IMG/VR virus record: IMGVR_UViG_3300045227_000003
DNA from: a virus
Length of the DNA: 60,167 nucleotides
Strand: one strand, 5' to 3'
Shown: in pieces, positions 283 to 58,525 of the stretch
How positions within the stretch are numbered: position 1 is the first letter of the stretch
Layout: every line of letters starts with the position of its first letter
Made by a program: the position numbers and the translations under genes
Notes under the pieces: generated by a model
Database searches by the model: none
Seen by the model: only the letters and a program-made list of their open reading frames with translations
Told to the model about the DNA's origin: nothing

Positions 283-2319
283 TTAATCCTTACGGTAAAA
301 GTATCCTTCCCACCCGGCAGCGCCAAGTGGTAGGCCCGGTGCCCATGACAGCGGCGCGGCCATACAGGTGATCAGGTCGTCCACGGTCAGCTCACTATCC
401 TTCGGCACTTCGGTTACGATTTCATCGTGGATGTGCATGACGATACGGAAGCCCATGCGGTGCGCCTTTTTCAGACCTTCGGCCAACACGTCGCGGGCCA
501 ACGCCTGCACGATGTTTTCCACCAGCTTACCGCCGTGGCTGTAGATCTTGCCCCACTTGTTCGCGCCGTCGACCTTGCCCTCGTACTGGAAGTTGGACTT
601 GGTGTACTTCTGGCCTTTCTTCGGCCCTTTCTGCACGGTCATCTGGCGCTCGACGATGCGTGGGCGGAAGTAATACATCTTGCGGCCAGACGGCAGGCGG
701 ATTGTCAGGAACGGCTTGGTGTACTCAATGACCAGACAGCCCCACGTTACCGGCTGCTTGGAGCGGATGACTTTGAACACCGCGTTTTCAAGGTCGTACC
801 ACGACTGCACGATCTCCGGGCACAGCTCACGGAACGCCTGCACCGATGCTTCGGCTTCGGCTTGGGTCATATGCACGCCCATGTTCTCCGCATAGCCCCA
901 CAGGCCGGTTTTCTTGCCTTGCTCGTCCATGTGGCCGCCTCCGAGGCGATAACCGGCACCAAGGGTCGCAGGCTTCGCTTTTGAGCGGTGTGGTTTTGTC
1001 TCTTCGTACGGCAGGTTAAGCCAGTGAGCTGCGAATGAACGGTACAGGTCGTGTTTAGCGGCCAGCGTGTCCATGAACCATTTGCAGTTTGTCAGCCAGC
1101 CGATCACGACGGATTCGATGGATGACAGGTCGGCCACGATAAACTTGTGCTCCGGGGTCGGGATAAACGCGGAACGGATGCAGCCCACCAAGGCCGACAT
1201 CGGCTCGCCGACGTACAGCGTCAGGGCATCAAGGTCGCGGTCGTGGATCATTTTGTTGACGATTGCCAAGTCCTCTTCGGCCTCGATCAGCTTCGGCGTA
1301 CGTGGCAGGTTTTGCGTCTGGATGCGACGACCGGCCCAACGGTTAGTACGGCTCGCCCCGGCAAACTGCAGTGAGTAGCGGAAGCGCCCGTCAGTACCTG
1401 CAGCGGCCATCATCGTGCCGTATTTAGCCAGTGATGATTTTGCGCTGTTCAGGCGCATTTCCAGTACCTCGGCCACGACTGGTTCTAGGCCCAAGTCACC
1501 CGCTTCGCGGATCACTTTGTTGGCCGTATCGCTGCGTAGGTCGTTGAACGGGTAGCCGCGTTCTTGAAGCCAGCCCAAAAGCTGCGCCGGGGAGTTAGGG
1601 TTGGACAGGCCGGTAATGTCGCGCATTTCCTCCATGATAAGGGGCTTGCGTCGCTCTGCGAGGTCGATGGCCGCCTGCGCGAAGTCGATGTCAATCATTA
1701 CGCCGGTATCGTTGATGTACTGATCCAGTGCGTACATGTCCCATTCGGACTCCATCACCGGGTATTTCTGTAGGCGGTGTTTAATCGCCAGCTCGGTCGT
1801 GACGTCCTGCTTGTTGTACGAACAGAATTCCCACCAGTCGTCCGGGTCAGTCGACTCGTTGCGCCATTCGAAAGGGTTGGCCTTGGTCACGCGTTGCGGC
1901 TTGCTGAACATGTCGATCAGGCGCTTGCCTTCGGTGTTTTTCAGCAGGTGGTCAGGCAGGCCGATGGTCTTGCCGATGGAGAGAAGATCGCCGGAGAACC
2001 CCAGCATGTAGGCCAGCGCCATCGTACAGCGCCATGAGTTGTAGTCAGTCTTTATTTTGAGAACCCGGCGCGTCATCACCCGCTCGAATTGTGCGTTGAA
2101 GGCCCACTTGTAGACTTTTGGGTCTTCCAGTGCATCGCGTAGTTCGCCCGGCAATTTAGCCCCGCGATGTAGGTCAGCGTGTTGCACCTTGCTGTCGTTA
2201 ATCGACCATGCGGCCATCAGGATTTTAGTTGACGGGTCGGAGCTGTACCGGTCGAAGCCTTGCGTCTTCAAGTTAATCCGGCTGCGGCTTTCATAGTCTA
2301 GGTTAATGTGGTCGGTCAC
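283..2319 (-). CDS. Family-A DNA polymerase with 3'-5' exonuclease domain
   Basis: 678 aa. Exo I-like DYESRS near the N-terminus. PolA motif A is VADLSSIE, motif B is RSKAKPATLGAGY and motif C is HIHDE. No 5'-3' exonuclease domain. Confidence 0.9.
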   Translation of the reverse strand: MTDHINLDYESRSRINLKTQGFDRYSSDPSTKILMAAWSINDSKVQHADLHRGAKLPGELRDALEDPKVYKWAFNAQFERVMTRRVLKIKTDYNSWRCTMALAYMLGFSGDLLSIGKTIGLPDHLLKNTEGKRLIDMFSKPQRVTKANPFEWRNESTDPDDWWEFCSYNKQDVTTELAIKHRLQKYPVMESEWDMYALDQYINDTGVMIDIDFAQAAIDLAERRKPLIMEEMRDITGLSNPNSPAQLLGWLQERGYPFNDLRSDTANKVIREAGDLGLEPVVAEVLEMRLNSAKSSLAKYGTMMAAAGTDGRFRYSLQFAGASRTNRWAGRRIQTQNLPRTPKLIEAEEDLAIVNKMIHDRDLDALTLYVGEPMSALVGCIRSAFIPTPEHKFIVADLSSIESVVIGWLTNCKWFMDTLAAKHDLYRSFAAHWLNLPYEETKPHRSKAKPATLGAGYRLGGGHMDEQGKKTGLWGYAENMGVHMTQAEAEASVQAFRELCPEIVQSWYDLENAVFKVIRSKQPVTWGCLVIEYTKPFLTIRLPSGRKMYYFRPRIVERQMTVQKGPKKGQKYTKSNFQYEGKVDGANKWGKIYSHGGKLVENIVQALARDVLAEGLKKAHRMGFRIVMHIHDEIVTEVPKDSELTVDDLITCMAAPLSWAPGLPLGAAGWEGYFYRKD

Positions 2320-2387: not shown

Positions 2388-2990
2388 TTAAACTTCGTCT
2401 TCGTCTTCCCACTCTTCGTCGTCATCCCACGCGTCGGACGTGTCTACACGACCTTCACCGAATGGTTCGTCGTCTTTGCGTTTCAGGACGGAGATCAGGT
2501 TGGCGTTAACGCGCTTACCAAACTTGTTTTCCTGCGACCAAGGGCGGATCACAGCGGAAACCCAGCAACCGCCATAAATCTCTTCGGCGATCTCGTTCGG
2601 GCTGTCCAGTTCCTCGCGTTCGATGTTCAGAACGTCCGGGCGCTTGTTCTCACGCGCTGAAATCACCCACATACCTTCGCACTCAGGCTTATCTGGGAAG
2701 TCAGTATCGCCGTCTTTGATGAACAACATGGAAGGGGCGACTTTCAGCGGCCCGGTCTTGTGGTTCTTCTTGGTGACTTCGATCTGCTCACGGATAATCT
2801 TCTCGATTTCGCCGTGGGTCTTTTTAGGCAGCAGCAGGGTGATCGAGTATTTAGGCTCGCCACCATCCTCGCCGCCGTATGGCTTGTCGAGGTGCGGATA
2901 AGAACAACGGGCGTTAGAAATCTTGATGTGCCCAGACTTGTACAGCACGCCATTCTTAACTTTCTTCTGGGGGATTAACTTCTCAGCCAT
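2388..2990 (-). CDS. ssDNA-binding protein, DUF2815-like
   Basis: 200 aa lying between the exonuclease and the polymerase, as in DUF2800/DUF2815/PolA modules. Ends in the acidic tail WDDDEEWEDEDEV. Confidence 0.6.
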   Translation of the reverse strand: MAEKLIPQKKVKNGVLYKSGHIKISNARCSYPHLDKPYGGEDGGEPKYSITLLLPKKTHGEIEKIIREQIEVTKKNHKTGPLKVAPSMLFIKDGDTDFPDKPECEGMWVISARENKRPDVLNIEREELDSPNEIAEEIYGGCWVSAVIRPWSQENKFGKRVNANLISVLKRKDDEPFGEGRVDTSDAWDDDEEWEDEDEV

Positions 2991-3039
2991 GATTACTTCC
3001 TCTCGTTTTACGGGTTTACACGGATTATCGGTTTACGAT

Positions 3040-4377
3040 CTACACTTCGTCGTCATCGTCTTCATCGTCATACGCGCCGTGGTACTTGCCGTCGAGTGGA
3101 AGCCGCTTATCTGTCAGCGGAACCAACGTTGGTTTTCCGTCAGGTTTATAGACATGTTGGTCGATAATGACCGGAGCGCCAGCCCTTGACAGCCCCAATT
3201 TCTCCCGAAGAACATCTTCCATCTGCGCGGGAGACCGCATTTCTGATTTGATGTAGTCCGACTCTTCCAGCCCAAGGAATTCGAAGAGGTCAATTACATC
3301 CTTCTCGTCCTTAAACTTGCGGAACGTCCGCGACTCCACCAACTTCTGCCCGGGGATCTTCTCCCCTTTCAAGGCCCGCTGCTCCAGCTCAAAGTCAAGC
3401 CGGGCAAACCAGTTCTCGATAACCTTACGGTAGGGCAAGATCTTCGCCATTTCAACGGTAGTCAGATTGCCGAATTTGGCCCGGGTCATCTTGTACTCGT
3501 CTTTCAAGGCATCGCGTAATGCACTCATTTCCGCCTCGCCGAATTCTTGGCCTAGAAAATACGTGTCACCACCGACTGCACACTCCATCATGTAGGCCAC
3601 GGCTGCGCAGTTATGTGCGGCCCGGCACCACCGGCACCCCTTCAACGTTGCTCGGCGCGTCGCGTTGAGATCCCAAGCCAAGGCGATCTGCCCGCGTGCA
3701 TACTCTGCAAAGTCCAGCAGGGCGTCGACGGTAACTTCCCACACGTCGAAGTGCTCAAGGCGGGGCTGTGCAATCCGAATGAGTACCCTATCGAATTCGT
3801 AATCATCCGAGAAGGCACGATAAGCACCGTAGGCGTAAAACAGTGCCTGCGTGTTATCCTCGGCGAAAACCTGCACGCCCGTACCATACTTCAAGTCCGT
3901 TATGATAAGGACGCCATCACGGATGATGATGTTGTCCGCCGTACCGCCTTGTGGTGCAAACGGTATGGCCGGTTTATCTGGCTCGTCCGGGTTGGCCCGA
4001 GGCATCAAATCCGTGAACCACACGCGGATCTCGGTAAACATTTCGCCTTCTTCGAACCGGCACCAGTCGACATAATCCTGAATGTAGTCCAGCATGGCCC
4101 GGGTGACTTTTATGTCGTGGGTCACGCCGTTTTCGGTCAGGCTGATCTCGGTACCGATCAGGTGATTCGGGCGTTGGTCTGACTTCAACCACTTCTCGGC
4201 GATGCCGTGAGCGACGGTGCCTTCTGCAGCCTCGAAGCTCGTTTCGTCATCTTCGAAAAGGTTAGCGAGTAGGCTACCAGAACACGATAGCCACATTGCA
4301 CTGCCGGACGGGGCGAATATTGAATGCCCACCCCCGGCGAATTCCCGCATAATGCGGGTCATCAGCGATTCAGCCAT
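3040..4377 (-). CDS. Cas4/DUF2800-type PD-(D/E)XK exonuclease
   Basis: N-terminal HSIFAPSGSAMWLSCSGS plus the C-terminal Cys cluster CRWCRAAHNC give a Cas4-like 4-Cys pattern. I prefer the ATG at 4377 (MAESLM) over the ORF-track start at 4428, which would bury the upstream 110-aa ORF. Tail is YDDEDDDDEV. Confidence 0.75.
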   Translation of the reverse strand: MAESLMTRIMREFAGGGHSIFAPSGSAMWLSCSGSLLANLFEDDETSFEAAEGTVAHGIAEKWLKSDQRPNHLIGTEISLTENGVTHDIKVTRAMLDYIQDYVDWCRFEEGEMFTEIRVWFTDLMPRANPDEPDKPAIPFAPQGGTADNIIIRDGVLIITDLKYGTGVQVFAEDNTQALFYAYGAYRAFSDDYEFDRVLIRIAQPRLEHFDVWEVTVDALLDFAEYARGQIALAWDLNATRRATLKGCRWCRAAHNCAAVAYMMECAVGGDTYFLGQEFGEAEMSALRDALKDEYKMTRAKFGNLTTVEMAKILPYRKVIENWFARLDFELEQRALKGEKIPGQKLVESRTFRKFKDEKDVIDLFEFLGLEESDYIKSEMRSPAQMEDVLREKLGLSRAGAPVIIDQHVYKPDGKPTLVPLTDKRLPLDGKYHGAYDDEDDDDEV

Positions 4378-4702
4378 TTTGGTACCCATGCGTCGCGGCA
4401 ATAAAACGTTTAATGCCGACCTGTTCAATCTTACGCGTTAGTGCCTTGGCCCCGGCAGCGCCGTAATTGTTCCTTCCGGCGTTATACCGGGTGGACACTA
4501 CATCCCGCCAAGAAACTTCGTCTACCCGTCGACCGCTCGCACCGTGCGTGAGCACGAAGGCAAACGGCTTTGTGGTGGAAGAAGTAACTCTGAAAAGTAT
4601 ATCGCGACCGCCAATCTCGTAACGGAACTCAGACCACTGAAAAACCTCAGTGCCAGAACCTGCCGTTGCTACCCTGACGCGCTTAAAACTGTTCACAATC
4701 AC
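4370..4702 (-). CDS. Hypothetical protein, 110 aa
   Basis: ORF-track entry with a GTG start just after GAGG. Same strand as its neighbours, and its stop overlaps the exonuclease ATG by 8 nt. No motif recognised. Confidence 0.5.
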   Translation of the reverse strand: MIVNSFKRVRVATAGSGTEVFQWSEFRYEIGGRDILFRVTSSTTKPFAFVLTHGASGRRVDEVSWRDVVSTRYNAGRNNYGAAGAKALTRKIEQVGIKRFIAATHGYQNG

Positions 4703-4710
4703 CTCACTTT

Positions 4711-4736
4711 GATGAAAACGGCCCCCGAAGGGGCCG
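4711..4736 (-). terminator. Intrinsic terminator/attenuator inside the early operon
   Basis: Minus-strand reading is cggcccc-ttcg-ggggccg followed by ttttcatc. It lies between the 128-aa gene and the 110-aa gene. Confidence 0.55.
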
Positions 4737-4754
4737 AGTTACCGGAAGAGGTTA

Positions 4755-5141
4755 TTAAACCTCGTCTTCGCCTTCTGCGTTGGTTTCTTCCAACTTAGCC
4801 TGACAGGCGTCGAAGATGGCGTCGAATTGGTCTTCTTTCGCTTCCGCGATTTTCGCCAGACCGAACTCGGCGGTGATTGCCTTGGCCGCTGGGGCACCGA
4901 ACGCGTCTTTAACCGCAACTACAGCCGCGACAACTTCGTCTTTGGTGTGAGTTGGTTTTGGCTTCTCGGTGGTTTTGGCCTTACCGGTAGTGGTTTTCTT
5001 GCCGGTAGTGCTGGTGGTCTTACCGGCGTCTGCGCCAGCTACTTCGCCAGCAGGGGCTGCGATACCGTTAGCCAGCAGGGATTCCAGCAGGGTGTTAGTT
5101 TTAACTTGTGCTTCCAGAATTTGCTCAAGGATACCTGACAT
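4755..5141 (-). CDS. Hypothetical protein, 128 aa, first gene of the leftward operon, acidic tail
   Basis: ORF track. It has a low-complexity T/K-rich linker (TTSTTGKKTTTGKAKTTEKPKP) and ends in AEGEDEV. GGAG lies upstream of the ATG. Confidence 0.65.
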   Translation of the reverse strand: MSGILEQILEAQVKTNTLLESLLANGIAAPAGEVAGADAGKTTSTTGKKTTTGKAKTTEKPKPTHTKDEVVAAVVAVKDAFGAPAAKAITAEFGLAKIAEAKEDQFDAIFDACQAKLEETNAEGEDEV

Positions 5142-5195
5142 AATTTCGTGCTCCGTTTCGGTTGTTTAAAAGGTCGTGTCGTGTTGACGGAGTGA

Positions 5196-5225
5196 AGTAT
5201 TGCCCATAGCCGTACACCCTGTCAA
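5196..5225 (-). promoter_or_regulatory. Sigma70-type promoter, leftward
   Basis: -35 TTGACA is the reverse complement of 5220..5225. -10 is AATACT with an 18-nt spacer, or CAATAC with 17 nt. It sits about 50 nt upstream of the ATG at 5141. Confidence 0.55.
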
Positions 5226-5250
5226 ACACTTTTTTAAAACTTTTTACGTC

Positions 5251-5334
5251 GGTACCGTAACTCTTTTACTTTCCGGGTGAAACGTAGCTACGGTACCGCC
5301 GTAAACCTTTAATTGACGGGGGTGGCTACCGTAG
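5251..5334. promoter_or_regulatory. Operator-like repeats between the divergent promoters
   Basis: ggTACCGTAa at 5251..5260, the palindrome CGTAGCTACG at 5283..5292, ggTACCGccGTAa at 5292..5304, and cTACCGTAg at 5326..5334. The last one lies inside the spacer of the rightward promoter. Confidence 0.45.
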
Positions 5335-5342
5335 TCTATTAT
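5313..5342 (+). promoter_or_regulatory. Sigma70-type promoter, rightward
   Basis: -35 TTGACG at 5313..5318, an 18-nt spacer, and -10 TATTAT at 5337..5342. It lies about 40 nt upstream of the ATG at 5384, which is preceded by GGGGG. Confidence 0.6.
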
Positions 5343-5383
5343 CCGCAAATCTATAACACGCGCACACCACGCGAGGGGGCACG

Positions 5384-5665
5384 ATGCGTTTTCCGAAATG
5401 GGCGATCTCCGATGATCGAATGAAGGTTAAATACCTAATGATGCAGATGGCATTAGAGGTAGACCCGAACGGCCGCATGGCTGTTTTGGCAAAAGAGGCA
5501 GACGTTGGGTACGAAACCCTTTTATGGGCAATTCGCAATAACGTGTCATCAGTTGTGGCCGAAAAAGTAAGCGCTGCAGTGCCACAATGCGGGGTTCGGC
5601 CCCATTGGTTGACTAACCCGTCATGGATCAAATTCGATGAAACAACCGGGGAAATCTTTGAATGA
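5384..5665 (+). CDS. Small Cro/YdaS-like HTH regulator, 93 aa
   Basis: First gene after the rightward promoter. The segment AVLAKEADVGYETLLWAIRNN...AAVPQCGVRPHWL resembles the YdaS/Cro-type HTH layout. Its stop overlaps the primase start (ATGA). Confidence 0.5.
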   Translation: MRFPKWAISDDRMKVKYLMMQMALEVDPNGRMAVLAKEADVGYETLLWAIRNNVSSVVAEKVSAAVPQCGVRPHWLTNPSWIKFDETTGEIFE

Positions 5666-8253
5666 ATTTTTGGCAGCTACACGGCTTAGATCTATGGGGT
5701 AACGGCTACACAATTGTGCCGATCTACTCCCCGGACGCCGATAAAAAAGGAGCCGGTAAACGGCCTATCGGCGAAGACTGGCAGCAAACTATCAATTCGA
5801 AGGAGGAAATTCAGGGTTGGGCACGTCGCTACACGAATAACGGTATCGGCATCCTGACCAAACGTACGCCTGCAGTCGACATTGACGTCTACGACGAAGA
5901 CGCCGCCGCGCACATGGCGAGCTGGGTTGAGGAAAACGTCGGTTTCGCCCCATGTCGTATCGGGCAAGAGCCGAAACGCCTGTATCTGTTCCGCACTGAC
6001 GAACCCTTCTCCAAGGTCAAGTCCTGCGTGTGGGAAGATGACTTTGGGCAGCGCCATGCCGTCGAAATCCTCGCAGATGGTCAGCAGTTCGTGGCCTACG
6101 GCATCCACCCGGATACCCGCAAAGAGTATTACTGGACGGGCCTCGATAACCCGCTGAACCATTCAGCCGAACTCGACTTGGAACCGCTGACGTTGGAAGC
6201 CGCGCGCGAGATCGCCGGGGAGTTCGACCGCTACGCAACCGAGCAAGGTTGGTTGAAAGTGAAGCGCGCTATCAACGGGCACGAAGCCGTGGGCGTCGCG
6301 GATGACGATGATTGGGCAAGTATGGCCGACGTCCAGAAATGGGACGGCACGTACGAAGACCTGCGCGACATCGTGATGAAGTACCCGAACCCGGAAGACT
6401 ACGAAAGCTGGATCACCGTACTGGCCGCGCTGCAGATCTCATGTCGCGACCAAGAGGAAGCGAAAGCCATCGCCCGGGAGTGGTCGGCACAGGCCGGTAA
6501 CTACGACGAGGCGGAATTTGACCACAAGTGGGACAAAGGCTTCGACCACAACGCCGGGCGGCTCGTCACTCTTGGCACGATCATCAAAACTGTCCGTGAC
6601 ATCGAGAAAGCCGAGGCCGAAGAGGCAGCGGTAGACTTCCGTGAAGGCTTTTCCACCAGCGAGAACATGTCTGACTGGAACGCATGGGCCGAATCGTTCA
6701 AGAAAGCGCAGATTTTCGGGCTTACACGTAAGGCCGTTGTCATCGTTGCCGCCGAAAAATACCGCCAATTCAACAATTTCCGACTCACTGCAGCCGACAA
6801 AAAGGAGCTTTTGGGCTTCGATTATGGCTCAAAAGACACCCCGACATGGCTTAAAAACTTCGTTTTCTCCAAGTCAAACGACGCGTTTATCGACAAATCG
6901 ACGGGTGATCTGATCTCAAAAGGCGCTTTCGACGTGGCTTACGCGAAGAAATGTACCTTCGAAGAAGAGAAATTTAAGCCAACCATGTACGCATCCGAAG
7001 TAAAACCTGTCCCGATGGTCTGGGATGGCATGTATTACCCGGAAATGCACGGCGACATGACTGGCACGAAGTGGAAACCGAGCGATGACGTCCCGGGGCC
7101 GGAATTCTTCACCGATCACCAAGGCCGTTTGTGGTTTAACACGTTCGACCAGGACTCGATCCCGGAACCGGCAGGCGAATTGTCGAAGTATGACCGCAAG
7201 GCGCTGGAAATCATCAAAGACTTCCTGCTTGTGCTGTTCCCGAACGAGAAAGAGCGCGGTTACGTGATGGATTGGATGGCGTGGGTCGTTCAGAACCCTA
7301 CCAAGCGCGTCAACTACTCACTCCTGATCCGTGGTGCCCACGGTTCCGGTAAAACGACGCTGGGTATCCTCATGTCGGCCATGTTGGGCCGGTCTAACGT
7401 GGGGTATGTGTCCAACTCCGTCATGAATGGCCGCTTCTCGGAATGGGCCGAGGGCCACATCCTGAAAATCGTGGAAGAGATCTACGACAAAGGCGACCGG
7501 TACAGCGCGGTGGAGCGCCAGAAGGAATTCATCACGAATGACCGCTTTCAGGTAGAGCCGAAGGGCCGTAAGGCGAAAGAGGTTGTGAATACTTCCAGCA
7601 AGATGATGTTCACCAACCACTTTAACGCCCTTCCACTGGATGAAAACCAGCGTCGTTATCTGGTGGTGTCCACCCAAGCCGAGAACCACCTCGACATGGA
7701 ACGCGTTTACGGGTCAGCGTCGGAGCGCTCGCGCTTCTTCAAAAACGTGTACCGCGCCATTGAAAGCCACGGCCCGGCCATCAAGAAATGGTTCTTGGAT
7801 TGGGCCATCAGTGACAAGTTTGACGCCAAGGGCCACGCACCTCAAGACACCGAAGCATTTGCCGTTATGTCCGACGCTTCTGGCGACGGTGTGACCGAAG
7901 TAATTGTGCAAATGTTGAGGGAGGAAAACACCCTCGGCGTGAACCGTGACGTGATCTTCTCTCCGGCTCTGAAAGACGCGTTTCTTGAAACGGCAAGTGA
8001 TCTAGAATTCCCTAAAGGGCCACGTCTGAAAAACATCTTAATGGAGTTGGGATTCAAGCCTGCAGGCGTGTTCAGTTATGACTCGGAAAAGGGTCGTTTG
8101 TACGTCCGAAATCGCATGAAAGGAGCGTTTAACGATGATGGCAGTTTAAACCTCTCAACCATCCGATCGATACTCAAAAAGCACAACGATCGGATCGAGG
8201 CGCTTATCGAAAAAGTGCCGAATCCGTTCGACGACGAAGATGACGAAGTGTGA
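5662..8253 (+). CDS. Primase-polymerase (AEP) fused to an SF3/D5-type helicase
   Basis: 863 aa. N-terminal prim-pol signature (GYTIVPIY..KRPIG.DWQ, DIDVYD, AYGIHP) and Walker A GAHGSGKT in the C-terminal half. Tail is PFDDEDDEV. Confidence 0.85.
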   Translation: MNFWQLHGLDLWGNGYTIVPIYSPDADKKGAGKRPIGEDWQQTINSKEEIQGWARRYTNNGIGILTKRTPAVDIDVYDEDAAAHMASWVEENVGFAPCRIGQEPKRLYLFRTDEPFSKVKSCVWEDDFGQRHAVEILADGQQFVAYGIHPDTRKEYYWTGLDNPLNHSAELDLEPLTLEAAREIAGEFDRYATEQGWLKVKRAINGHEAVGVADDDDWASMADVQKWDGTYEDLRDIVMKYPNPEDYESWITVLAALQISCRDQEEAKAIAREWSAQAGNYDEAEFDHKWDKGFDHNAGRLVTLGTIIKTVRDIEKAEAEEAAVDFREGFSTSENMSDWNAWAESFKKAQIFGLTRKAVVIVAAEKYRQFNNFRLTAADKKELLGFDYGSKDTPTWLKNFVFSKSNDAFIDKSTGDLISKGAFDVAYAKKCTFEEEKFKPTMYASEVKPVPMVWDGMYYPEMHGDMTGTKWKPSDDVPGPEFFTDHQGRLWFNTFDQDSIPEPAGELSKYDRKALEIIKDFLLVLFPNEKERGYVMDWMAWVVQNPTKRVNYSLLIRGAHGSGKTTLGILMSAMLGRSNVGYVSNSVMNGRFSEWAEGHILKIVEEIYDKGDRYSAVERQKEFITNDRFQVEPKGRKAKEVVNTSSKMMFTNHFNALPLDENQRRYLVVSTQAENHLDMERVYGSASERSRFFKNVYRAIESHGPAIKKWFLDWAISDKFDAKGHAPQDTEAFAVMSDASGDGVTEVIVQMLREENTLGVNRDVIFSPALKDAFLETASDLEFPKGPRLKNILMELGFKPAGVFSYDSEKGRLYVRNRMKGAFNDDGSLNLSTIRSILKKHNDRIEALIEKVPNPFDDEDDEV

Positions 8254-16342: not shown

Positions 16343-16717
16343 ATGAGCAATACTTACCCCGGCGTAGCCCCGGCTGCGCTTACAGCGGCGATGATGACCA
16401 CCGAGCAAGACGTCGAGCTGCCATCCCGCGTGCGTGCGCACAGCGTGGTGGGCAACCTGATTGCACTGAAAGTTGGCGAGGTCTTCACCCTGTCCCAAGA
16501 GCTGCCAGTCGAGCGGGCACTGAAACAGGTACAGGACGAGGCCAACGCGATGAAGGCCAAGATCCGGGCCAGCCTCAATTCATCCATTCGCAACGCCATG
16601 AAACACCACGGCCAGCAGTTCAGCATGGAGTCAGCGCTGATCTCCTACCCGTCTGGCCGTATGTTCATTCAGGTTGTCGTTACCTGCGTGAGCGTGGACG
16701 AAGACGACGAGGTTTAA
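16343..16717 (+). CDS. Hypothetical protein, 124 aa, acidic DDEV tail
   Basis: The ATG at 16343 follows GGAG (ORF track lists 16301). Ends in VSVDEDDEV. Confidence 0.6.
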   Translation: MSNTYPGVAPAALTAAMMTTEQDVELPSRVRAHSVVGNLIALKVGEVFTLSQELPVERALKQVQDEANAMKAKIRASLNSSIRNAMKHHGQQFSMESALISYPSGRMFIQVVVTCVSVDEDDEV

Positions 16718-17561: not shown

Positions 17562-17907
17562 AACCGTAGCCGTGATCGGCGAAGAGTACCGGCAACTGCG
17601 CGCGGTGCGCCTTGATCAGCTGATCGAGAAGACCCGCTACATGGAAGTTTGGTACGACGCGCTGGAAGAGGATGCGCAAACATTCTTTAACAGCCAACTG
17701 GCCCTACTGGAAAGCGGTACGACCCCTGACCATGAGCGCCTGTATAACCAGATCAGTGACCGGTTCGCCGAAACGATGGCAAACATCCGGTCAGCACGCG
17801 AAGCACAACGCATGGCCTGCGCCCACATCACGGCGGCTATGTACCACGGCCTTCCGGCCAACCTGATAAATATCGAGGCACTGGACAATGAAAGTAAAGA
17901 ATTTTGA
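17548..17907 (+). CDS. Hypothetical protein, 119 aa, GTG start
   Basis: ORF track. Confidence 0.45.
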   Translation: MADNKTVAVIGEEYRQLRAVRLDQLIEKTRYMEVWYDALEEDAQTFFNSQLALLESGTTPDHERLYNQISDRFAETMANIRSAREAQRMACAHITAAMYHGLPANLINIEALDNESKEF

Positions 17908-18958
17908 CAAGCTGGTGGCGCTGCACCTCGGCGCACTGTATGACGCGGCCAACGATAACAGCGAGAAGGTGACACCGTTCCACCGCCTGCTGTTGAGCAC
18001 GCCAGACATGGATGAAGAGACCATCCATAAATTCGCGACCAAAACCCTGTCCGATAAGTTGAAACCCGAGGCGATCACTGACCCGGCAGAAGCGTCGTAC
18101 TCGTCTATGGGCTTCGCACCGTTCAGCGAGGAAGTCGGCAACACGTTCGCCCTATCCATCCCGGGCACGAAAGCCATCGTCCTGCAGGTCGAGAAGCGCG
18201 AGCGTGTATTGCCGGGCGTGAGCGTCCGTAACGCCGTGGTAGAGCGTATGAAGGCGCTGCAGGCCAAAGAGATCGACGGCTGGACGCCGACCCGGAAGGA
18301 TTGGGCCGAGCTGAAAGAGGACGTCGAAGCCAACATGCTGAAAACCGCGCCGATCCGTCCGTCCAAGATCTTCATCATGCTGTCCATGCCATACGTGTTC
18401 GTGTTCACCAGCAGCGCCAAGAACGCCGAAGCCTGCACGGCCATGCTGCGTAAAGCCGTGGGCACCTTCCCTACCGAAAGCCTGCTGATCGACGAGTACA
18501 GCCTACGCCAGTTCATGAAAGGCGTGGTGGCGAAGAAGTACAGCGACTACGAGCCTGACCACTACGTCCACGTTAAGCACGAAGACGGCGACGACGTGAA
18601 GGTCAAGGACATCGACATCGGCAACTGTACGATGGTCAACGACCTACTGGACAACGACTACACGCCTCGCGCGCTGGACTTCTCGGTCGACACCCAGACC
18701 ATCGGCATTGACCGCGTGTGGCTGCGCCTGACCGATAAGGCCATCGTATCCGGGCTGCATATCGGCGAGGCTGACGTTGACGCCAACTACGACGCCACGC
18801 TGGAACACTACGGCACTGACGGCGGGCTGTTCCTGTCCATGATGGCTAACCTGTTCCAGCTCGACAAGTCCCTCCACGCGCTGTTCCGCTCACTGGATGA
18901 AACCGGCGAGATCGTGGTCGAGTACACGGCCACACTGGAAGATGACGACGAGGTTTAA
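17888..18958 (+). CDS. RdgC-like recombination-associated protein with DDEV tail
   Basis: 356 aa. The stretch IVLQVEKRERVLPGVSV...TRKDWAELKEDVEANMLKTAPIRPS...TSSAKNAEACTAMLRKAVGTFP runs parallel to E. coli RdgC as I remember it: ICARKEEKILPSPVI...[21 protein letters not shown]...[22 protein letters not shown]. Ends in LEDDDEV. Confidence 0.55.
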   Translation: MKVKNFDKLVALHLGALYDAANDNSEKVTPFHRLLLSTPDMDEETIHKFATKTLSDKLKPEAITDPAEASYSSMGFAPFSEEVGNTFALSIPGTKAIVLQVEKRERVLPGVSVRNAVVERMKALQAKEIDGWTPTRKDWAELKEDVEANMLKTAPIRPSKIFIMLSMPYVFVFTSSAKNAEACTAMLRKAVGTFPTESLLIDEYSLRQFMKGVVAKKYSDYEPDHYVHVKHEDGDDVKVKDIDIGNCTMVNDLLDNDYTPRALDFSVDTQTIGIDRVWLRLTDKAIVSGLHIGEADVDANYDATLEHYGTDGGLFLSMMANLFQLDKSLHALFRSLDETGEIVVEYTATLEDDDEV

Positions 18959-18960
18959 CG

Positions 18961-19170
18961 ATGGATAGCGACCTGCAGAAGCAACACGAAAAACTGCTGG
19001 ACGGGATGAAAGAAGGCGAGTCCTTCTTCATTCCAGACGTTAAGCCGGATCAGCTCGGCTACGTGCGCCGCCTTGGGTACAAGCTGGGCCTGAAACTATC
19101 AATCCGCTACACCCTGAAAGACCCGATCTACGGGAAGATGGGCACCCGCGTGCGTCGCGAGAAGGAATGA
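18961..19170 (+). CDS. Hypothetical protein, 69 aa
   Basis: ORF track. Confidence 0.5.
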   Translation: MDSDLQKQHEKLLDGMKEGESFFIPDVKPDQLGYVRRLGYKLGLKLSIRYTLKDPIYGKMGTRVRREKE

Positions 19171-19647: not shown

Positions 19648-20394
19648 ATGAAACACCCAACGCCCTTGTTTGCCCCGTTTAACCAACTCCTGATCGGCAA
19701 AAGCCCGATTTACATCTTCCCCCTGCCATACGGGCCACGCGCGGTAATCTCATGTGACGGCTGCGACGTGTCTGTATTCGTTGACGAGTACGGCGGCCGC
19801 AAAGACATCACCGGTTTCGCCCCAAGCCTAGAAGACCAGATCCTCCGCCTGTATGCGGCCATGTTCTCCGAGCCTAACCCGAAGTACACGAAGAACGGCA
19901 CGCAGGTCGTGTTCCCGACTTTGGTGTTCGACGTCATCCTGTCCGACGCAGCCGAGGCAGAAGACACGGACGGCAGCGCAGACGCGTTAATGGAGCACCT
20001 GTCCAACTTTGACGATTTAGGCGCGCCAGCACCGACTGGCAGCGTTAGCGCCTTGGTTCTGTGCGTCATGTTGGAGGAAGAGTTTAAGAATGGCCGCACC
20101 ACACACGATATCTGGTGGCAACGCTCATGGCTGATCCGTGGCCTCATGAAGATCGGAATGGGCAATCCTTACAGTTACCCTCGCCCGGAGATCAAGCCGC
20201 TGACACAATCGCCGCGTGAGTGGCGCTTCGAGTACAACGGTATCGCCTCCGACCTGCCGGACGTGTGTTGGAACATGATCTACAACTGCTTCAAGCGCCA
20301 GTATGCCGGGGCGCTAATCGTGGACGTCTGGCAGGGCTGGAAGGCCCGGGGCGACGCTTACCGTGTTCTCTATGAGGATGATGTTGAACTATGA
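19648..20394 (+). CDS. Hypothetical protein, 248 aa
   Basis: ORF track. Ends in the near-tag YEDDVEL. No family recognised. Confidence 0.6.
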   Translation: MKHPTPLFAPFNQLLIGKSPIYIFPLPYGPRAVISCDGCDVSVFVDEYGGRKDITGFAPSLEDQILRLYAAMFSEPNPKYTKNGTQVVFPTLVFDVILSDAAEAEDTDGSADALMEHLSNFDDLGAPAPTGSVSALVLCVMLEEEFKNGRTTHDIWWQRSWLIRGLMKIGMGNPYSYPRPEIKPLTQSPREWRFEYNGIASDLPDVCWNMIYNCFKRQYAGALIVDVWQGWKARGDAYRVLYEDDVEL

Positions 20395-21011: not shown

Positions 21012-22192
21012 GCGAGCAAAAACTGACATACATCACTACCCCGGCAGAGATCCGCACCTTCCTGAACATGGCGCTGGACGCCGGACTACAGCCGAACGCG
21101 AGCGGCCTGCACATCGTGGCCGAAGAGTTCCTGATTAAAGAATGCAAGGTTCCATTGGAAAACATCATGCAGGTGACAGGCGTGAAGGTCATTGAAGGCC
21201 CGAACAACGGCCTGCCGGAGCACATCACAATCGAGTGGGATCGAACCCCACGCATCAGTGTAGCCCCGACCCCGGCGCAAGAGACTGCATGGAGCCGTGA
21301 ACAGGCGGACTACATCATCAAAGAGATCGTTGGGCAGCTCCGCAAGCCACGCGCCACGTCGAACCCGGAATTCACTATCAGCATGACACCGCGAGAAACG
21401 GGAATGAGCGAAGCCTTTGCCGCCCCATACGGCCTGAGCACCATGCCGCGCATGTCCGTTGAGGATGCCTTGCGCCAGTTCGGTCGTGCCGCGAGCAAGA
21501 TATCCGACGCTACTGCAAGTAACTTCGAGAAGTTGGCCGAGCACTTCGACGAAATGGAGTTTAAGCGTGTGGCCGGAGTCTCCCCGGAAGAGTGGGCGGC
21601 GAAGGTCGACGAACTAGACAGCGCCAAGGCCACCATCACCAGTCTGCAGATCCAAATGGAAGAGTCCCGCCGCAACCATGCCGAGGACATTGCCGAGTAT
21701 GAGCGCAAGGTCAAGATGTTGCAGGTCGATAAGGACACCATGCGGGCCACGTCCAAGTCGATCCGCGACACCTACCGCCATGCCCCACGGACATGCAGCG
21801 TAAGCGCGATATGGGCCGAGCTGTTCTACATGAACCCTATCACCGCGCGCTGGATCATTGAGTCCGCCTACAAGCTGTTCAACGTCGCCATACCGGATAA
21901 CGGTTTCGATGTCGATGTCCGTCAGGCGAAGAAAGACCTGCCGACGGCGGCGATGCACTACATCCACGGCATGTGTGACAACCTCATGATCGTGCCGGTG
22001 CCGAAGCCTGTAACGCGCCAGATGTTGAAGACGGCAATGACCATGCTGGTGCAAAAAATCGGCCACGATGAAGCGCTGGCGCTGCTGACCCGCCAAACTG
22101 GGGCAGGCCGCATAGATCAGGTTCCTGACGATCAGGTCGAACCGCTGTATCATGCCGCCATCACCGCCACGCACAACGAGGATTTCATTTAA
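21008..22192 (+). CDS. Hypothetical protein, 394 aa
   Basis: ORF track. The central segment is coiled-coil-like (ITSLQIQMEESRRNHAEDIAEYERKVKMLQVDKD). Confidence 0.6.
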   Translation: MSEQKLTYITTPAEIRTFLNMALDAGLQPNASGLHIVAEEFLIKECKVPLENIMQVTGVKVIEGPNNGLPEHITIEWDRTPRISVAPTPAQETAWSREQADYIIKEIVGQLRKPRATSNPEFTISMTPRETGMSEAFAAPYGLSTMPRMSVEDALRQFGRAASKISDATASNFEKLAEHFDEMEFKRVAGVSPEEWAAKVDELDSAKATITSLQIQMEESRRNHAEDIAEYERKVKMLQVDKDTMRATSKSIRDTYRHAPRTCSVSAIWAELFYMNPITARWIIESAYKLFNVAIPDNGFDVDVRQAKKDLPTAAMHYIHGMCDNLMIVPVPKPVTRQMLKTAMTMLVQKIGHDEALALLTRQTGAGRIDQVPDDQVEPLYHAAITATHNEDFI

Positions 22193-22878
22193 TGAGCGAG
22201 TACCTTGACCACCTGAACAACCTGAAAGCCCGGCTCGAACATGAGCCGAAGGAGATTGGCGACCAATGGCGCACCCCGGAATGGCTGTTTCAGGCGATTA
22301 ACCACCTGTACGGGCCTATCGTGCTCGACCTGTTTACCGACGGCCAGAATGCCAAATGCCCGCGTTTCTTCACCGCCGAGGATAACGCGCTGCAGCAGGA
22401 TTGGGCCGGTAAACTGCAGGCGATCCACGCCGAGATAGGGGCCGACCCTTGCGAAATGGTATGGGGCTACGCGAACCCGCCATACAGCCAGAAGCGCGCC
22501 GGGAAGGAACCGCTGACCGGGATGACCCACATCATGCGCAAGGCGGACGAGGAACGTAAGCGCGGCGCGGGCACCATATGGCTAACCAAGTCCGCCACGT
22601 CCGAAAGCTGGTGGCCCGACGAGACCGCGACCCGGATCATCTTCATCAAAGGCCGCATCGGTTTCGAGCCGCCGGTCTGGTTCAACGCCAAGGCAGGCAG
22701 CAGCGAGATCACCGGGGCCGGGTTCGGCGCGTCCATCATGGTGTTCGACCCATGCGACGACCGCATCTACCCGAACGAGTACGTCAGCCGGGAGTACCTG
22801 CTGGAGATTGGGTCGAAACTGGCGGACATCAGTCAGGCCGAACGTGACGCGTGGATCGCGTTATGGGATGAAATCTAG
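22192..22878 (+). CDS. Phage Dam-type DNA N6-adenine methyltransferase
   Basis: DQWRTPEWLF, LDLFTDGQNAKCPRFFT and GYANPPYS match the phage N-6-adenine methyltransferase layout. Confidence 0.7.
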   Translation: MSEYLDHLNNLKARLEHEPKEIGDQWRTPEWLFQAINHLYGPIVLDLFTDGQNAKCPRFFTAEDNALQQDWAGKLQAIHAEIGADPCEMVWGYANPPYSQKRAGKEPLTGMTHIMRKADEERKRGAGTIWLTKSATSESWWPDETATRIIFIKGRIGFEPPVWFNAKAGSSEITGAGFGASIMVFDPCDDRIYPNEYVSREYLLEIGSKLADISQAERDAWIALWDEI

Positions 22879-50762: not shown

Positions 50763-51050
50763 TTAGACCTCTTCGTCCTGCACTGGCTTGGCGTTCTTTT
50801 CTGCCTTGCCGGGCTTACCCGCTGGCGCTGCTGCTTTGGCTTCGGCGTCTGCCTTTTCCTGAGCTTCTTTCTGCGCCTGCAGGTTTTCCACGTCCACTTC
50901 AATAATCGGGCGGGTCAGGGCTTCCGGGTTGATACCCATGATGTTGTCCAGTTCGTCCTGCTTGAAGTCGAAGATCTCACCGACTGCAGGGCGGATACGC
51001 TGACCGTCGCGGTACACGATTACTGTCTGGACTACTTTACGTTTTGGCAT
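50763..51050 (-). CDS. gpFI-position protein, 95 aa, with flexible A/E/K/P linker and DEEV tail
   Basis: The ATG at 51050 follows GAGGAT (ORF track starts at a TTG at 51065). Ends in KPVQDEEV. Confidence 0.6.
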   Translation of the reverse strand: MPKRKVVQTVIVYRDGQRIRPAVGEIFDFKQDELDNIMGINPEALTRPIIEVDVENLQAQKEAQEKADAEAKAAAPAGKPGKAEKNAKPVQDEEV

Positions 51051-51061
51051 AGTTCTTATCC

Positions 51062-51089
51062 TCAAAACCGAACCGCCCGGAGGGGGCGG
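51062..51089 (-). terminator. Intrinsic terminator/attenuator after the capsid gene
   Basis: Minus-strand reading is ccgccc-cctcc-gggcgg followed by ttcggtttt. Confidence 0.55.
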
Positions 51090-55884: not shown

Positions 55885-57978
55885 TCAGGCTAGTAGTGCC
55901 GCTAAGTCTTTAAAACTGTATTCGCTATCCGAAGACTGTTCAAACTTTTTGTCCTCTTCGGGCTTGCGGATCATGAAGTTGGTCTCCCAACCGGCGGCCC
56001 AGCCCGGAGGGTTCTCCCAATCAAGCTGCTCGACTGCGAGAACACGCCCGCTGACGCACATGCCAAGCACATAGTAACTCAAGTCCCACGTTTCGTTTCG
56101 GGAGTTATTCGGGTTTTCCCAACCTTTGTCGGTTCTGATCTCCACGCACAGCTCCGAAAACACGTAGTCCGCTGACCAGTCGCCGATATGATACATGCCT
56201 TTGCCCGGCTCCATTACGTCCAGTCGACCGTTCAGGGTGTCTTTCATCACGTTGGAGTTAATCATCAGTACCGGAACGTCGCCCCGGGCGATGGCTTTCT
56301 TATCCTTCTGGTTGGAGTCAGGAAGCGCTATACGCGTACGTGGGTTGTTTACCCTATGGTCGCCCTTGACTAAGCAGAAACGTTGGTTGTGGCCCTCGTT
56401 ACGCAGCTTCCTGTAATACTCATACGCGTTACCTGTAACCCCTGCCTCCCCGCCGGAGTCACACCCGGTCATTTTGATAGGCATCATTCGGCCCGATCCA
56501 TCGGCCAACGGGTACTCTTTGTCCATCACCAGTTCTTTGATTAGATCCCAGTCTTCCAGATACGCCGCCGGGTTGAGGATCAGCGGGTCGCCGTCAACGT
56601 CGAGGCGTTTGGACTTCGCGATGTTGAAGCGGTCGACGACAAACGTGTCAAACGGGTAGCCCGGGCCAATGCCCATGACCAACACCTCGAAGCGGTTTTT
56701 CTGCACGTCGACGGTCGCTACCAAGAAGTGCGCACCGTCCGGCACGGTCTGTTCCGGCCATGCCTCTGCGCGGGATTTCAGCAGCTCCGGCACGCGCATA
56801 GACTCGACTGATTTCGGGCGGTACGGCTCGCCCATGTCGTTGTTCCAGAATTTCTTCAAGGACTCTTCGGACAGGGTGCGCTCGTAGTCGTCGGACGCGT
56901 CCAGATAGTTGAGCACCAGTTTCTGCCATGTGATGAATGCCGCCGCTGTACCGCGCAGCCAGAAGGAGGCGAATGACGAGCGAGGCTTCTCACCGACGAG
57001 CTGGCCCACCTCGTTGATGCGGCAACCTTCCGGCACCCACATACCCCAGATATTCATTTCGTACTTATCAACCGGCGCGATCTCGCTGCCACAATGCGGG
57101 CAGGCCATCCGGGTAGTCTCGGACTTTTCGAGGTTCGATAGCGGCGCGCCATCTTTGCCCTTGGTGTCCCAGCGAAGCAGGTCAAACGTGCCTTCGAAAT
57201 ACTGATCGCAGTGCGGGCACGGCCAATGCCAGCGGCGACGGTCGCCACGGTTATACAGGCCGATGATCCCTTCGCATGGCGGGGCTTCGTGAGGGGAGCG
57301 CTTGATCCAGCTCGGGTCGATAATCGGGCGGGATGGCGATGACTCGGCGATGCACATGGCAAACGAGCCAAAGGTGGTCGTACGTTTCGAGGCGAGGTCG
57401 AAGGCATTACCGTCCCCGCCGATGTCGTCGTCGATACGGTCGTAGTCCGTGATGATGATGCGGCCAACCGGTCGCCCGGCCAGTTCGGTTACGGACGGGT
57501 AACTCAACGTCAGGATGATGCCGGTGATGTAGTGCTTGTCAAACTTGTTGTCGGCGTCGCGGTTCTTCATCAGCATTTTGCCGATTTCCGGGCTGTGCCG
57601 GTGAAGACGGTCTACACGTCGCATTGAGAAGTCGCGGGCGGCTGTGCTGGTGGGGCAAAAGATCATCGTGTCCATCGGGTCGACGCGGACAGAGTAGGCA
57701 ATGCCGTTCAGGATCAGGGCATCCGTTTTACCTGTCTGCGCCGGGCCGACAAACGCCATCTTGTCGTACTCCCGGCTGTTAAGCATGTTCATCGGGTCGA
57801 CCATGTACGGCGTCGTGATGTTCATCCACGGCCCGACATACGCGCCGGGCTGATTGACGTAGCGGTACTTGCTCGCAGCCTCGGCCACGGTCATTCGCAT
57901 CGGCGGCTTTAGCTGCTCCGCCACTGAGCAAATGATTTGAGCGATGCTATCAAACTTCATCGTCGCCCACCTTGTCAT
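55885..57978 (-). CDS. Terminase large subunit, lambda gpA family
   Basis: Walker A VGPAQTGKT. The probable true start is the ATG at 57960 (MKFDSIAQ), 6 nt after GGTGG, which overlaps the last codons of TerS. Confidence 0.9.
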   Translation of the reverse strand: MTRWATMKFDSIAQIICSVAEQLKPPMRMTVAEAASKYRYVNQPGAYVGPWMNITTPYMVDPMNMLNSREYDKMAFVGPAQTGKTDALILNGIAYSVRVDPMDTMIFCPTSTAARDFSMRRVDRLHRHSPEIGKMLMKNRDADNKFDKHYITGIILTLSYPSVTELAGRPVGRIIITDYDRIDDDIGGDGNAFDLASKRTTTFGSFAMCIAESSPSRPIIDPSWIKRSPHEAPPCEGIIGLYNRGDRRRWHWPCPHCDQYFEGTFDLLRWDTKGKDGAPLSNLEKSETTRMACPHCGSEIAPVDKYEMNIWGMWVPEGCRINEVGQLVGEKPRSSFASFWLRGTAAAFITWQKLVLNYLDASDDYERTLSEESLKKFWNNDMGEPYRPKSVESMRVPELLKSRAEAWPEQTVPDGAHFLVATVDVQKNRFEVLVMGIGPGYPFDTFVVDRFNIAKSKRLDVDGDPLILNPAAYLEDWDLIKELVMDKEYPLADGSGRMMPIKMTGCDSGGEAGVTGNAYEYYRKLRNEGHNQRFCLVKGDHRVNNPRTRIALPDSNQKDKKAIARGDVPVLMINSNVMKDTLNGRLDVMEPGKGMYHIGDWSADYVFSELCVEIRTDKGWENPNNSRNETWDLSYYVLGMCVSGRVLAVEQLDWENPPGWAAGWETNFMIRKPEEDKKFEQSSDSEYSFKDLAALLA

Positions 57979-58525
57979 CCTTCTTAAACTTGTCGATCAG
58001 CGCCACGGCCAAGTCGTTCAGCATTCCATCCACCGACGACTGCACCACGTTGCGCTGCGCTTCGGTCAGACCTGCTTGGCGGGCCAGCGTATCGGGGATA
58101 AGCAGCATGGACATGCGAAGCAGTTTTACCGCCTCGCCGAAATGCTCGACCACCTGCTCGGTCTCCCACAAATTACCGGCCTTGATGTCGAAGTCCTGCT
58201 TGGCGCGCTGCCCGGCCCAAAACTCTTTTGACAGCTCCTTGGGCAGATCCTTGAAATTCATGCGACGCAGGTAGGTCTCCACGTCATACAACGGCTTGAT
58301 CAGGTACGGGGCCACCTCATGCACCGCGTAGATCGGATACCCGCCGCGCTCTCCGATTGGCGGGACATCCATGATTTTAGGGGTGACGTCACGACGCTCC
58401 ATGCGAAACAGCTTCGCGATCTGCGTGATGTTGCACCCCTGAAAGATCATCGCCTCGGTATCAGCGTCCGGGGCGTTAGACCGGCGTTTGCCGGTCGCTA
58501 CTTCTGGTCTAGTCGTCTTCGTCAT
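57950..58525 (-). CDS. Terminase small subunit candidate, 191 aa, with DDEV tail
   Basis: Lies immediately upstream of TerL and overlaps it. It has an HTH-like segment, CNITQIAKLFRMERRDV, and ends in KVGDDEV. Confidence 0.6.
   Translation of the reverse strand: MTKTTRPEVATGKRRSNAPDADTEAMIFQGCNITQIAKLFRMERRDVTPKIMDVPPIGERGGYPIYAVHEVAPYLIKPLYDVETYLRRMNFKDLPKELSKEFWAGQRAKQDFDIKAGNLWETEQVVEHFGEAVKLLRMSMLLIPDTLARQAGLTEAQRNVVQSSVDGMLNDLAVALIDKFKKDDKVGDDEV

Follow-up and report, generated by a model that had tools for sequence, protein, structure and literature searches.

Among the described systems, the closest to the one treated here is that of phage T7, in which the acidic tails of gp2.5 (...EDGDF) and gp4 (...NDTDF) bind the gp5 polymerase. 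Both tails share the front basic patch of gp5, where the DTDF peptide has been seen (PDB 6P7E; PMC12339929), and the gp2.5 tail is cited as a competitor of single-stranded DNA (ssDNA) in the cleft of gp2.5 itself (reference cited in PMC5686142). The structure paper on Enc34 has grouped the PF10991 family of ssDNA-binding proteins (SSB) with T7 gp2.5 and has described, for the SSB only, a tail that occupies a beta-sheet groove of the neighbouring SSB in the crystal; SSB deprived of this tail binds double-stranded DNA (dsDNA) and has an altered DNA specificity (PMC5686142). Here we describe a tail of related kind on at least eight proteins of a single phage, encoded in the IMG/VR virus record IMGVR_UViG_3300045227_000003 (60,167 nucleotides; this whole stretch is called the window in the following). 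The phage is a Chi-like siphophage of the Casjensviridae; at the nucleotide level it is ~81% identical to its closest record, Serratia phage Smarc5, and ~75% identical to Salmonella phage Chi and relatives. Judged from its conservation across related genomes, the tail is maintained by selection at the peptide level. The main new result is that its terminal residue is lineage-specific and changes together across unrelated proteins, and the pattern is therewith stronger and more general than could be seen from the window alone, from which an earlier note had derived the existence of the shared tail.

The tripeptide D-E-V or E-E-V closes all eight tagged proteins, whose C-termini read exactly as they had been written in that note. 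The positions 2388-8253 given there for the observation hold four of the tagged genes, and the other four lie outside. The gp2.5/Enc34-type SSB (200 amino acids, 2388..2990, minus strand; Pfam PF10991 Enc34_ssDNA-bd, E=1e-29) carries the tag EDEDEV (tag codons 2391-2408) at the end of the C-terminal region DDDEEWEDEDEV; its OB-fold core reaches to about residue 178 and is followed by a disordered acidic tail, in agreement with an AlphaFold2 (AF2) model in which the predicted local distance difference test score (pLDDT) exceeds 90 in the core and falls from 69 to 55 in the tail. A DUF2800 exonuclease of the Cas4-like PD-(D/E)XK type (3040..4428, minus strand; PF10926, E=2e-66) ends Y-DDEDDDDEV, and a 128-residue protein of unassigned function (p128, phrog_7721; 4755..5141, minus strand) ends EGEDEV, its AF2 model (pLDDT 70) consisting of an N-terminal helix, a K/T-rich disordered linker, a three-helix bundle and the tag. 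On the plus strand, the primase(-helicase) with the Pfam domains Prim-Pol, PriCT_2 and DUF5906 (5662..8253) ends F-DDEDDEV, a DUF7609 protein of 124-138 residues depending on the start codon (16301/16343..16717; PF24582) ends VDEDDEV, and an RdgC-like recombination-associated protein (17888..18958; PF04381, phrog_724) ends LEDDDEV. The set is completed on the minus strand by two proteins of the packaging and head module. The FI-position protein (p100, DUF7443; 50763..51065; PF24227), named after the lambda FI position of its gene just downstream of the major capsid gene, is laid out as a small N-terminal domain, an A/K/E-rich linker of variable length and the tag QDEEV, and the small terminase subunit TerS (DUF1441, phrog_141; 57950..58525) ends GDDEV.

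Taking a curated set of 76 genes as the basis (a proteome of 19,022 residues), EV ends are found in 8 genes versus 0.31 expected (binomial P=1.2e-9) and DEV ends in 7 (P=1.7e-16). The motif [DE][DE]EV occurs eight times in this proteome and is terminal in 8/8 cases, so that P values for enrichment and position range from 1e-9 to 1e-24, and none of the 213 non-gene open reading frames (ORFs) of at least 60 residues ends in EV. In a permutation test of the kind that the earlier note had proposed, shuffling of the last 20 residues of each protein has yielded 0.33 EV ends on average and at most 4 in 20,000 trials; the observed eight have never been reached, and the tag is accordingly far beyond chance. 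The codons indeed differ between the copies, as had been noticed (GTT, GTG or GTC for Val; TAA, TAG or TGA as stop), and therefore the tag is not a copied DNA segment. Frame errors, which had been named as an alternative, are excluded by the stop positions, since these are shared by the orthologues of many genomes.

Alignment of orthologous C-termini, likewise proposed in that note, has shown that the tail is kept at the peptide level and that the linkers vary. The acidic run and the terminal Val are retained by the orthologues of Smarc5, Chi, Providencia phage Redjac and 15 Chi-like contigs from IMG/VR, with few Ile ends and with the Redjac primase (VWGDD) as an exception. The database relatives of p128 end in Val in 114/120 cases and in Ile in the other 6/120, and the residues preceding this end differ. 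For SSB, 117 database relatives end in Leu (75), Ile (28) or Val (9), 115/117 ending in L, I, V, M or F, and 116/117 have at least three D/E among the seven residues before the end. Between relatives, the linkers of p100 and p128 vary in both length and sequence, and the two proteins follow a common plan of small folded domain, low-complexity linker of variable length and composition, and tag, which, as far as layout can tell, is the typical look of a tethered short linear motif.

Beyond the Chi-like genera, the comparison has covered the whole genomes of Pectobacterium phage MA11, Aeromonas phage BUCT551, Xanthomonas phage FoX4, Erythrobacter phage R22L, Escherichia phage E21, Xylella phage Salvo and Edwardsiella phage eiAU, with T7 as a control, and two IMG/VR scans have added ~60 new SSB-anchored loci and 79 loci anchored on the major capsid protein; acidic tails per genome are counted either by a uniform criterion or by direct listing. 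In MA11, an acidic run with terminal Leu is found on SSB, exonuclease, the p128 homologue, primase, RdgC, FI-position protein, TerS, SNF2 helicase and three more proteins (11 by direct listing; by the uniform criterion 8, of which 8/8 end in Leu). BUCT551 carries ...E-Ile on nine proteins including a methyltransferase (9/9 Ile), and FoX4 mostly ...E-Leu on eleven proteins by direct listing, among them the portal and an exoribonuclease (uniform criterion: 9 acidic tails, 8/9 Leu). R22L shows mainly ...D-Ile on SSB, FI-position protein, TerS and others, and E21 a mixture of Ile, Met, Leu and Phe on SSB, the p128 homologue, RdgC, FI-position protein and primase. Salvo and eiAU, in which the same replication genes are present, have no shared tag, and the T7 control shows ...D-Phe on gp2.5 and gp4 only. 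Followed protein by protein, the exonuclease ends DDDEV in Smarc5, Chi and Redjac, MDDDL in MA11, DDDEI in BUCT551, DADEL in FoX4 and DDGL in the Burkholderia phage BcepNazgul; RdgC ends EDDEL in MA11, DDGEI in BUCT551, DDGEL in FoX4 and VEDDM in E21; and the DUF7609 protein is tagged only in Chi-like genera (DDDEV in Smarc5, Chi and Redjac), being untagged in E21 and BUCT551. BcepNazgul (L070, L152) provides a version in which six proteins end Gly-Leu (SSB NGGL, exonuclease DDGL, primase GCGL, TerS AAGL, SNF2 AAGL, FI-position protein ASGL) and most of the acidity is gone from several of these tails, a hint that the last two residues and the free carboxylate would form the core of recognition. 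In the wider group of SSB- and capsid-anchored loci, Leu is the commonest end, Ile occurs in several separate clades, Val in the Chi-like clade only and Phe in one small group. The Val ending of the tag thus holds for the Chi-like genera and not for the group as a whole.

The concerted nature of these changes has been evident from two tests. Permutation over seven lineages and eight protein families has given 37.6 +/- 5.1 identical within-genome pairs with a maximum of 72 in 200,000 trials, compared to 105 observed. Against a tree-aware null, in which the last residue of each protein has been evolved on the SSB tree, the last residue of TerS equals that of SSB in 36/42 lineages (P<0.0002), which makes TerS the best tracker of the SSB tail, followed by primase (24/37, P=0.007), p128 (20/28, P=0.012) and exonuclease (24/42, P=0.04); for the SNF2 helicase, which is tagged only in some lineages, agreement with SSB has not been significant in this test. 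The p100 tag tracks the lineage in most of the 79 capsid-anchored loci, e.g., as DDDI, DDEI, EEEL or ASGL, so that the proposed inclusion of packaging and head proteins in the set is well supported by TerS and the FI-position protein alike. As read from these comparisons, the last residue has been switched repeatedly, between Val, Ile, Leu, Phe and Gly-Leu, in all clients of a lineage together. Further clients bear the local version of the tag, namely the portal of FoX4, the methyltransferase of BUCT551 and ParB of R22L, and such a gain of clients is as expected of a portable motif. Basal relatives with genomes of 43 kb carry the tail on SSB and primase only, as in T7, and the simplest history is one in which a T7-like two-protein system has later recruited more clients.

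Concerted change across 5 to 10 unrelated proteins is the signature to be expected of one shared, co-evolving reader. As phages of closely related Enterobacterales differ in their tails, a conserved host reader is unlikely, and the reader would be encoded by the phage itself. The motif is built of an acidic run that is disordered and often follows an aromatic residue, and of one aliphatic last residue with free carboxylate; we regard it as probable, though by no means certain, that it acts as a short linear docking motif read by one or very few phage-encoded co-evolving pockets, the receptor discussed below being a candidate only. Regarding the phage-wide docking peptide with a common receptor that had been proposed in the earlier note, a shared, selected and co-evolving terminal motif has thus been borne out by comparative genomics, and docking itself is what we infer from it. 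Mechanistically, the Asp/Glu run would rest on a basic surface, and the last residue would enter a small hydrophobic pocket equipped with a residue that binds the carboxylate. By analogy with T7, docking might bring the primase, the exonuclease, RdgC, the methyltransferase, the SNF2 helicase, TerS and the FI-like protein together on DNA that is coated with SSB or being replicated, and might help the DNA to pass from enzyme to enzyme, whereby cos-packaging would be coupled to replication; proteins such as the FoX4 portal and the BUCT551 methyltransferase would have become clients by acquiring the local version of the tag. In its most extended form, which we put forward tentatively and as a conjecture, the tail may be regarded as an "address code" of the Casjensviridae and their relatives: the lineage's tails (...DEV, ...DEL, ...DEI, ...DDF, ...GL) on the terminase and on proteins for replication, recombination, DNA modification and head completion would be read by one hub of phage origin, perhaps SSB with its DNA-binding face, replication and cos-packaging would form one factory, and the tag-reader pairs of different lineages would be mutually orthogonal.

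Several proteins have been considered as the reader. The family-A polymerase PolA (283..2319, minus strand; Pfam DNA_pol_A, phrog_17), named first among the receptor candidates of the earlier note and a candidate by analogy with T7, is untagged here (...GYFYRKD) as in all genomes compared, and it is unlikely to be a universal receptor, because FoX4 keeps the tags with a dissimilar polymerase and PolA is undetected in several tagged loci. The FoX4 polymerase at the PolA position (L039:7349-9400) has no Pfam match and no detectable similarity to Chi-type PolA (BLASTP E=0.39; phrog_1252 versus phrog_17), and it looks like a replacement inside an otherwise syntenic replication module. Further IMG/VR loci with tags in which PolA has gone undetected include L051, L054, L062, L063, L067, L068 and L075; in addition, PolA shows no covarying column (family-wise P=0.18), and no PDB relative has been found by sequence. 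The alternative of a host factor, also raised at the outset, is unlikely, as the tails end in Val, in Leu or in a mixture of Ile and Met among phages whose hosts are closely related Enterobacterales. By Pfam, no clamp, PDZ, TPR or other peptide-binding domain has been found in the ~59 window proteins that were scanned. p128 is not recognisable as a receptor or adaptor, since Foldseek against the PDB has returned nothing at E<=0.001, and p128 has not been detected in several tagged lineages. Phylogenetic profiling names no receptor either: p128, RdgC, p100 and a 69-residue protein (p69) are present in tagged genomes and not found in Salvo or eiAU, but all four are clients. A strict scan for convergent substitutions between Ile and Leu lineages has given no convincing column in SSB, exonuclease, primase, TerS, SNF2, PolA or TerL. 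In TerL (window 55885-57978), the position of Y160 is occupied by Trp in most lineages with a Leu tag, and most of those with an Ile or Val tag have Tyr or Phe there; with exceptions at this position in MA11, L049, L141 and L162 and nothing beyond the tree-aware null (family-wise P=0.47), TerL has been rejected as the reader.

A tree-aware, family-wise covariation scan of eight proteins against the tag class (Leu versus Ile or Val) has given its only clear signal in the SSB core, at D119 and E127 (P<0.0025), with a weaker one in SNF2 (P=0.013) and nothing in TerL, PolA, primase, portal or capsid protein. Among the 117 database SSBs plus that of the window, Lys or Ser at the site following a conserved Arg-Pro goes along with a Leu end in 41/41 cases, Asp or Glu with Val in 9/10 and Pro with Ile in 9/11, whereas Thr, Val, Ile and Ala are mixed. 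Residue 119 sits seven residues past Arg112, which contacts a DNA phosphate in the Enc34 SSB-ssDNA structure. Beside the covarying positions, a conserved V-R-D becomes V-[YL]-N in Val-type phages. Our preferred candidate for the receptor would hence be the OB-fold DNA-binding face of SSB itself, a weak preference that should serve as a lead only; PolA, RdgC, p128, TerL or several receptors would be possible as well.

A number of observations weigh against docking on a common, SSB-based hub. The covariation in SSB replicates only marginally (tree-aware P=0.05, family-wise 0.08) and could reflect only the interaction of SSB with its own tail, which, moreover, is not docked with confidence in the AF2 monomer of the full-length protein (pLDDT 55-69). 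The mixture of Ile, Met, Leu and Phe in E21 demands a pocket that tolerates related residues, and the system is dispensable, as Salvo and eiAU possess the same replication genes without a shared tag. The number of independent switches is modest, the two-state tag class of the receptor scan changing 3 to 5 times per family tree, and there is no evident reason for TerS and a head-completion protein to dock on a replication hub. Other explanations have been weighed as well. One of them, that the tail is a nucleotide-level or compositional artefact stemming from a terminator, from gene conversion, from the ribosome-binding site of the following gene or from an acidic proteome, can draw on the GAGG contained in GAG GTN and on two cases in which the next start lies 2-3 nt past the stop (RdgC to p69; p100 to the next gene). 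As a ribosome-binding site, GAGG is applicable to these 2/8 genes only: the other six have no closely spaced downstream start. Four of them are separated by 49-72 nt from the next real gene, TerL starts upstream of the TerS stop, and the ORF over the primase stop is doubtful. Considering further that Leu or Ile codons in other lineages are devoid of GAGG, that codons vary between copies and that composition-matched shuffles never give the count, this explanation is effectively refuted.

A more serious rival assumes independent cis-acting tails, each of which would mimic DNA and fold onto the basic DNA-binding surface of its own protein as an autoinhibitor or specificity filter, so that no common receptor is needed. 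DNA binding is common to most clients, the Enc34 SSB binds dsDNA once its tail is deleted (PMC5686142), the T7 gp2.5 tail is cited as occupying its own cleft, and SSB core residues covary with the SSB's own tail. Such tails would have no reason to share a last residue or to switch jointly in 5 to 10 unrelated folds, and in BcepNazgul the GL end persists although much of the acidity is gone (AAGL on TerS and SNF2), which means that the end and not the charge is conserved; as the tag is also found on a small head-module protein without known DNA binding, we consider this explanation unlikely. A signal for stability or turnover, read by a protease, unfoldase or chaperone of host or phage that sets lifetime or folding, would through its single reader explain concerted change equally well, and C-terminal residues with free carboxylate are classical recognition elements, as in ssrA-type tags and for the tail-specific protease. 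Known bacterial C-terminal degrons are, however, non-polar or basic and not poly-acidic, proteins as abundant and essential as SSB, primase and TerS are among those tagged, and the difference between Val, Leu and Ile/Met among phages of closely related Enterobacterales speaks against a conserved host reader; since the scanned proteins show only an S49 prohead protease and no PDZ domain, and T7 is a direct functional precedent for docking, a role in turnover appears quite improbable. Still less credit is given to localisation or encapsidation, in which the tail would direct its bearers to the procapsid interior, the portal vertex, the membrane or a polar site and not to the replisome. TerS and the FI-position protein do act at the prohead, the portal is tagged too in FoX4, and C-terminal targeting peptides are known for capsid-like compartments; yet SSB and primase are the oldest and most constant clients, and there is no precedent in the group for SSB, exonuclease or methyltransferase being packaged into heads. 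Docking to a shared phage-encoded reader has thus remained the preferred explanation.

Besides the eight tagged proteins, the window contains related tails. The three near-variants listed in the earlier note have fared differently: two are conserved, namely WDDEDD on the SNF2-family helicase (as W-D-D-E-[DE] in Chi-likes) and EDDVEL on a 248-residue protein, and LCEDE at 27023 is not. The SNF2 helicase (58509..60071, minus strand; Pfam) ends W-DDEDD, i.e., with an acidic run and an upstream aromatic residue and no aliphatic end, and its orthologues end WDDE[DE] in Chi-likes, DDDEL in MA11, EDDEI in BUCT551, ADLEL in FoX4 and AAGL in BcepNazgul. The 248-residue protein (phrog_6886, function unassigned; 19648..20394, plus strand), ending YEDDVEL, has its own conserved terminus E-x-x-V-E-[LI] (EDDVEL, EEDVEL, EGEVEI, EEDVEI) unlike the main tag, and its membership in the set is uncertain. 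A Dam-type DNA methyltransferase (22192..22878, plus strand; PF05869), which had been missed, ends LWDEI, with WDEI in Smarc5, Chi and Redjac, FDDL in E21 and EEEEI in BUCT551 as counterparts; by these comparisons, LWDEI is a probable Ile variant of the tag. Starting 2 nt downstream of RdgC, p69 (phrog_7200; window 18961-19170) is kept in nearly all tag-bearing genomes and has been found in neither Salvo nor eiAU. Its end is basic here; the MA11 version has the tag of its lineage (KDEEL), and so has the FoX4 version, which forms part of a longer protein with the end EEDDEL. A second type of tail, with an aromatic and acidic end and no aliphatic residue (W-D-D-E-[DE], ...VWDD, ...VWGDD, ...EFDD), recurs on SNF2, exonuclease and primase (SNF2 of the window; E21, L026, L046, L050, Redjac). 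Many standard tags also carry an aromatic residue right before the acidic run, and the IMG/VR loci L072 and L084 have F-D-D on SSB, exonuclease and TerS. Furthermore, a 137-residue ORF of R22L without Pfam match (L036:42028-42441(-)) ends DDDIPF, the bacterial SSB-Ct motif, and several primases of distant relatives (L090, L100, L101) end D-[IVC]-P-F; these ends may represent mimicry of the host SSB tip.

Concerning the genomic frame, the window is the circular assembly of a complete phage genome with 60,040 bp of unique sequence, positions 1-127 being identical to 60041-60167 as a terminal repeat from circular assembly. Between PolA and the SNF2 helicase, the gene of the VRR-NUC nuclease runs across the assembly junction and is consequently in no ORF list. 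The gene order agrees with that of annotated relatives and comprises a replication module of PolA, gp2.5-type SSB, DUF2800 exonuclease and primase, two early-gene blocks, and a lambda-like packaging and head module (TerS, gpA-type TerL, gpW, lambda-family portal, S49 protease, gpD, capsid protein), after which come the tail and lysis genes.

If docking is confirmed, the idea of an acidic-tail replisome, derived from two T7 proteins, would grow to a proteome-wide list that reaches the terminase and the head, and for a lambda-like cos phage a concrete physical connection of replication with packaging would be at hand. The reach into packaging and the concerted switching are the features that would surprise specialists, the switching between Val, Ile, Leu, Phe and Gly-Leu being a natural experiment in the co-evolution of motif and reader. 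Provided that the codes are orthogonal, proteins of co-infecting relatives would be incompatible, which would hinder mosaic recombination and promote the splitting of lineages, and the same pairs would be ready-made docking pairs for engineering. The families phrog_7721, DUF7609 and DUF7443 would gain a likely role as clients of a DNA-transaction hub, and the terminal motif supplies a simple annotation rule for spotting members of the tag system. The hypothesis is directly testable with peptides and tail swaps and in the genetically tractable Salmonella phage Chi.

Compared to other C-terminal signals, the tag is unlike ssrA-type degrons, which are of the non-polar LAA type and read by ClpX or the tail-specific protease, the terminal tripeptide here being DEV or EEV. 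D-E-V-COOH formally fits class III ligands of PDZ domains ([DE]-x-hydrophobic-COOH), with no PDZ domain in the scanned window proteins and with host PDZ proteases being periplasmic. Clamp-binding peptides comprise the beta-clamp motif QL[SD]LF, the PIP box and the gp45-binding C-termini of T4 gp43, gp33 and gp55; they resemble the tag in that unrelated proteins share a short terminal peptide for one hub, which in T4 couples replication to another late process, and differ from it in being hydrophobic (QLxLF/LDFLF) and not poly-acidic, and no clamp gene has been recognised among the ~59 proteins scanned by Pfam. The bacterial SSB-Ct (...DFDDDIPF) shares the acidic run, the hydrophobic end, the free carboxylate and the disordered linker, its tip being recognised by a basic ridge and a hydrophobic pocket, and it organises enzymes of replication, recombination and repair. 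Here the polarity is reversed, as at least eight proteins carry the tail instead of one tail serving many readers; the SSB is of the PF10991 type and not the bacterial tetrameric one, the end is EDEV without Pro-Phe, and the tag reaches the packaging machinery. Full-text literature searches, which left most subscription journals outside, have returned no earlier description of a multi-protein tag in these phages. With T7, finally, the agreement is closest, and the analogy already drawn in the earlier note has gained strength from the SSB type and from the basal relatives, which tag SSB and primase only. Three features of the T7 type are found in the phage described here: the gp2.5/Enc34-type OB fold of SSB, the SSB tail (disordered, acidic, with a hydrophobic last residue and free carboxylate) and a tail of the same kind on the primase(-helicase), both tails in T7 using one reader. 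Phe232, the last residue of T7 gp2.5, is reportedly essential for function, and for such a role in the present phage only conservation and concerted switching speak. To our knowledge, concerted lineage-specific switching has not been described for T7-like phages. Unlike in T7, the polymerase is probably not the common reader, as FoX4 keeps the tag with a dissimilar polymerase; the end is aliphatic (V, I, L, GL) instead of Phe; and in place of two clients there are eight here and up to 11 in relatives, including exonuclease, RdgC, methyltransferase, SNF2, TerS, the FI-position protein and, in one lineage, the portal.

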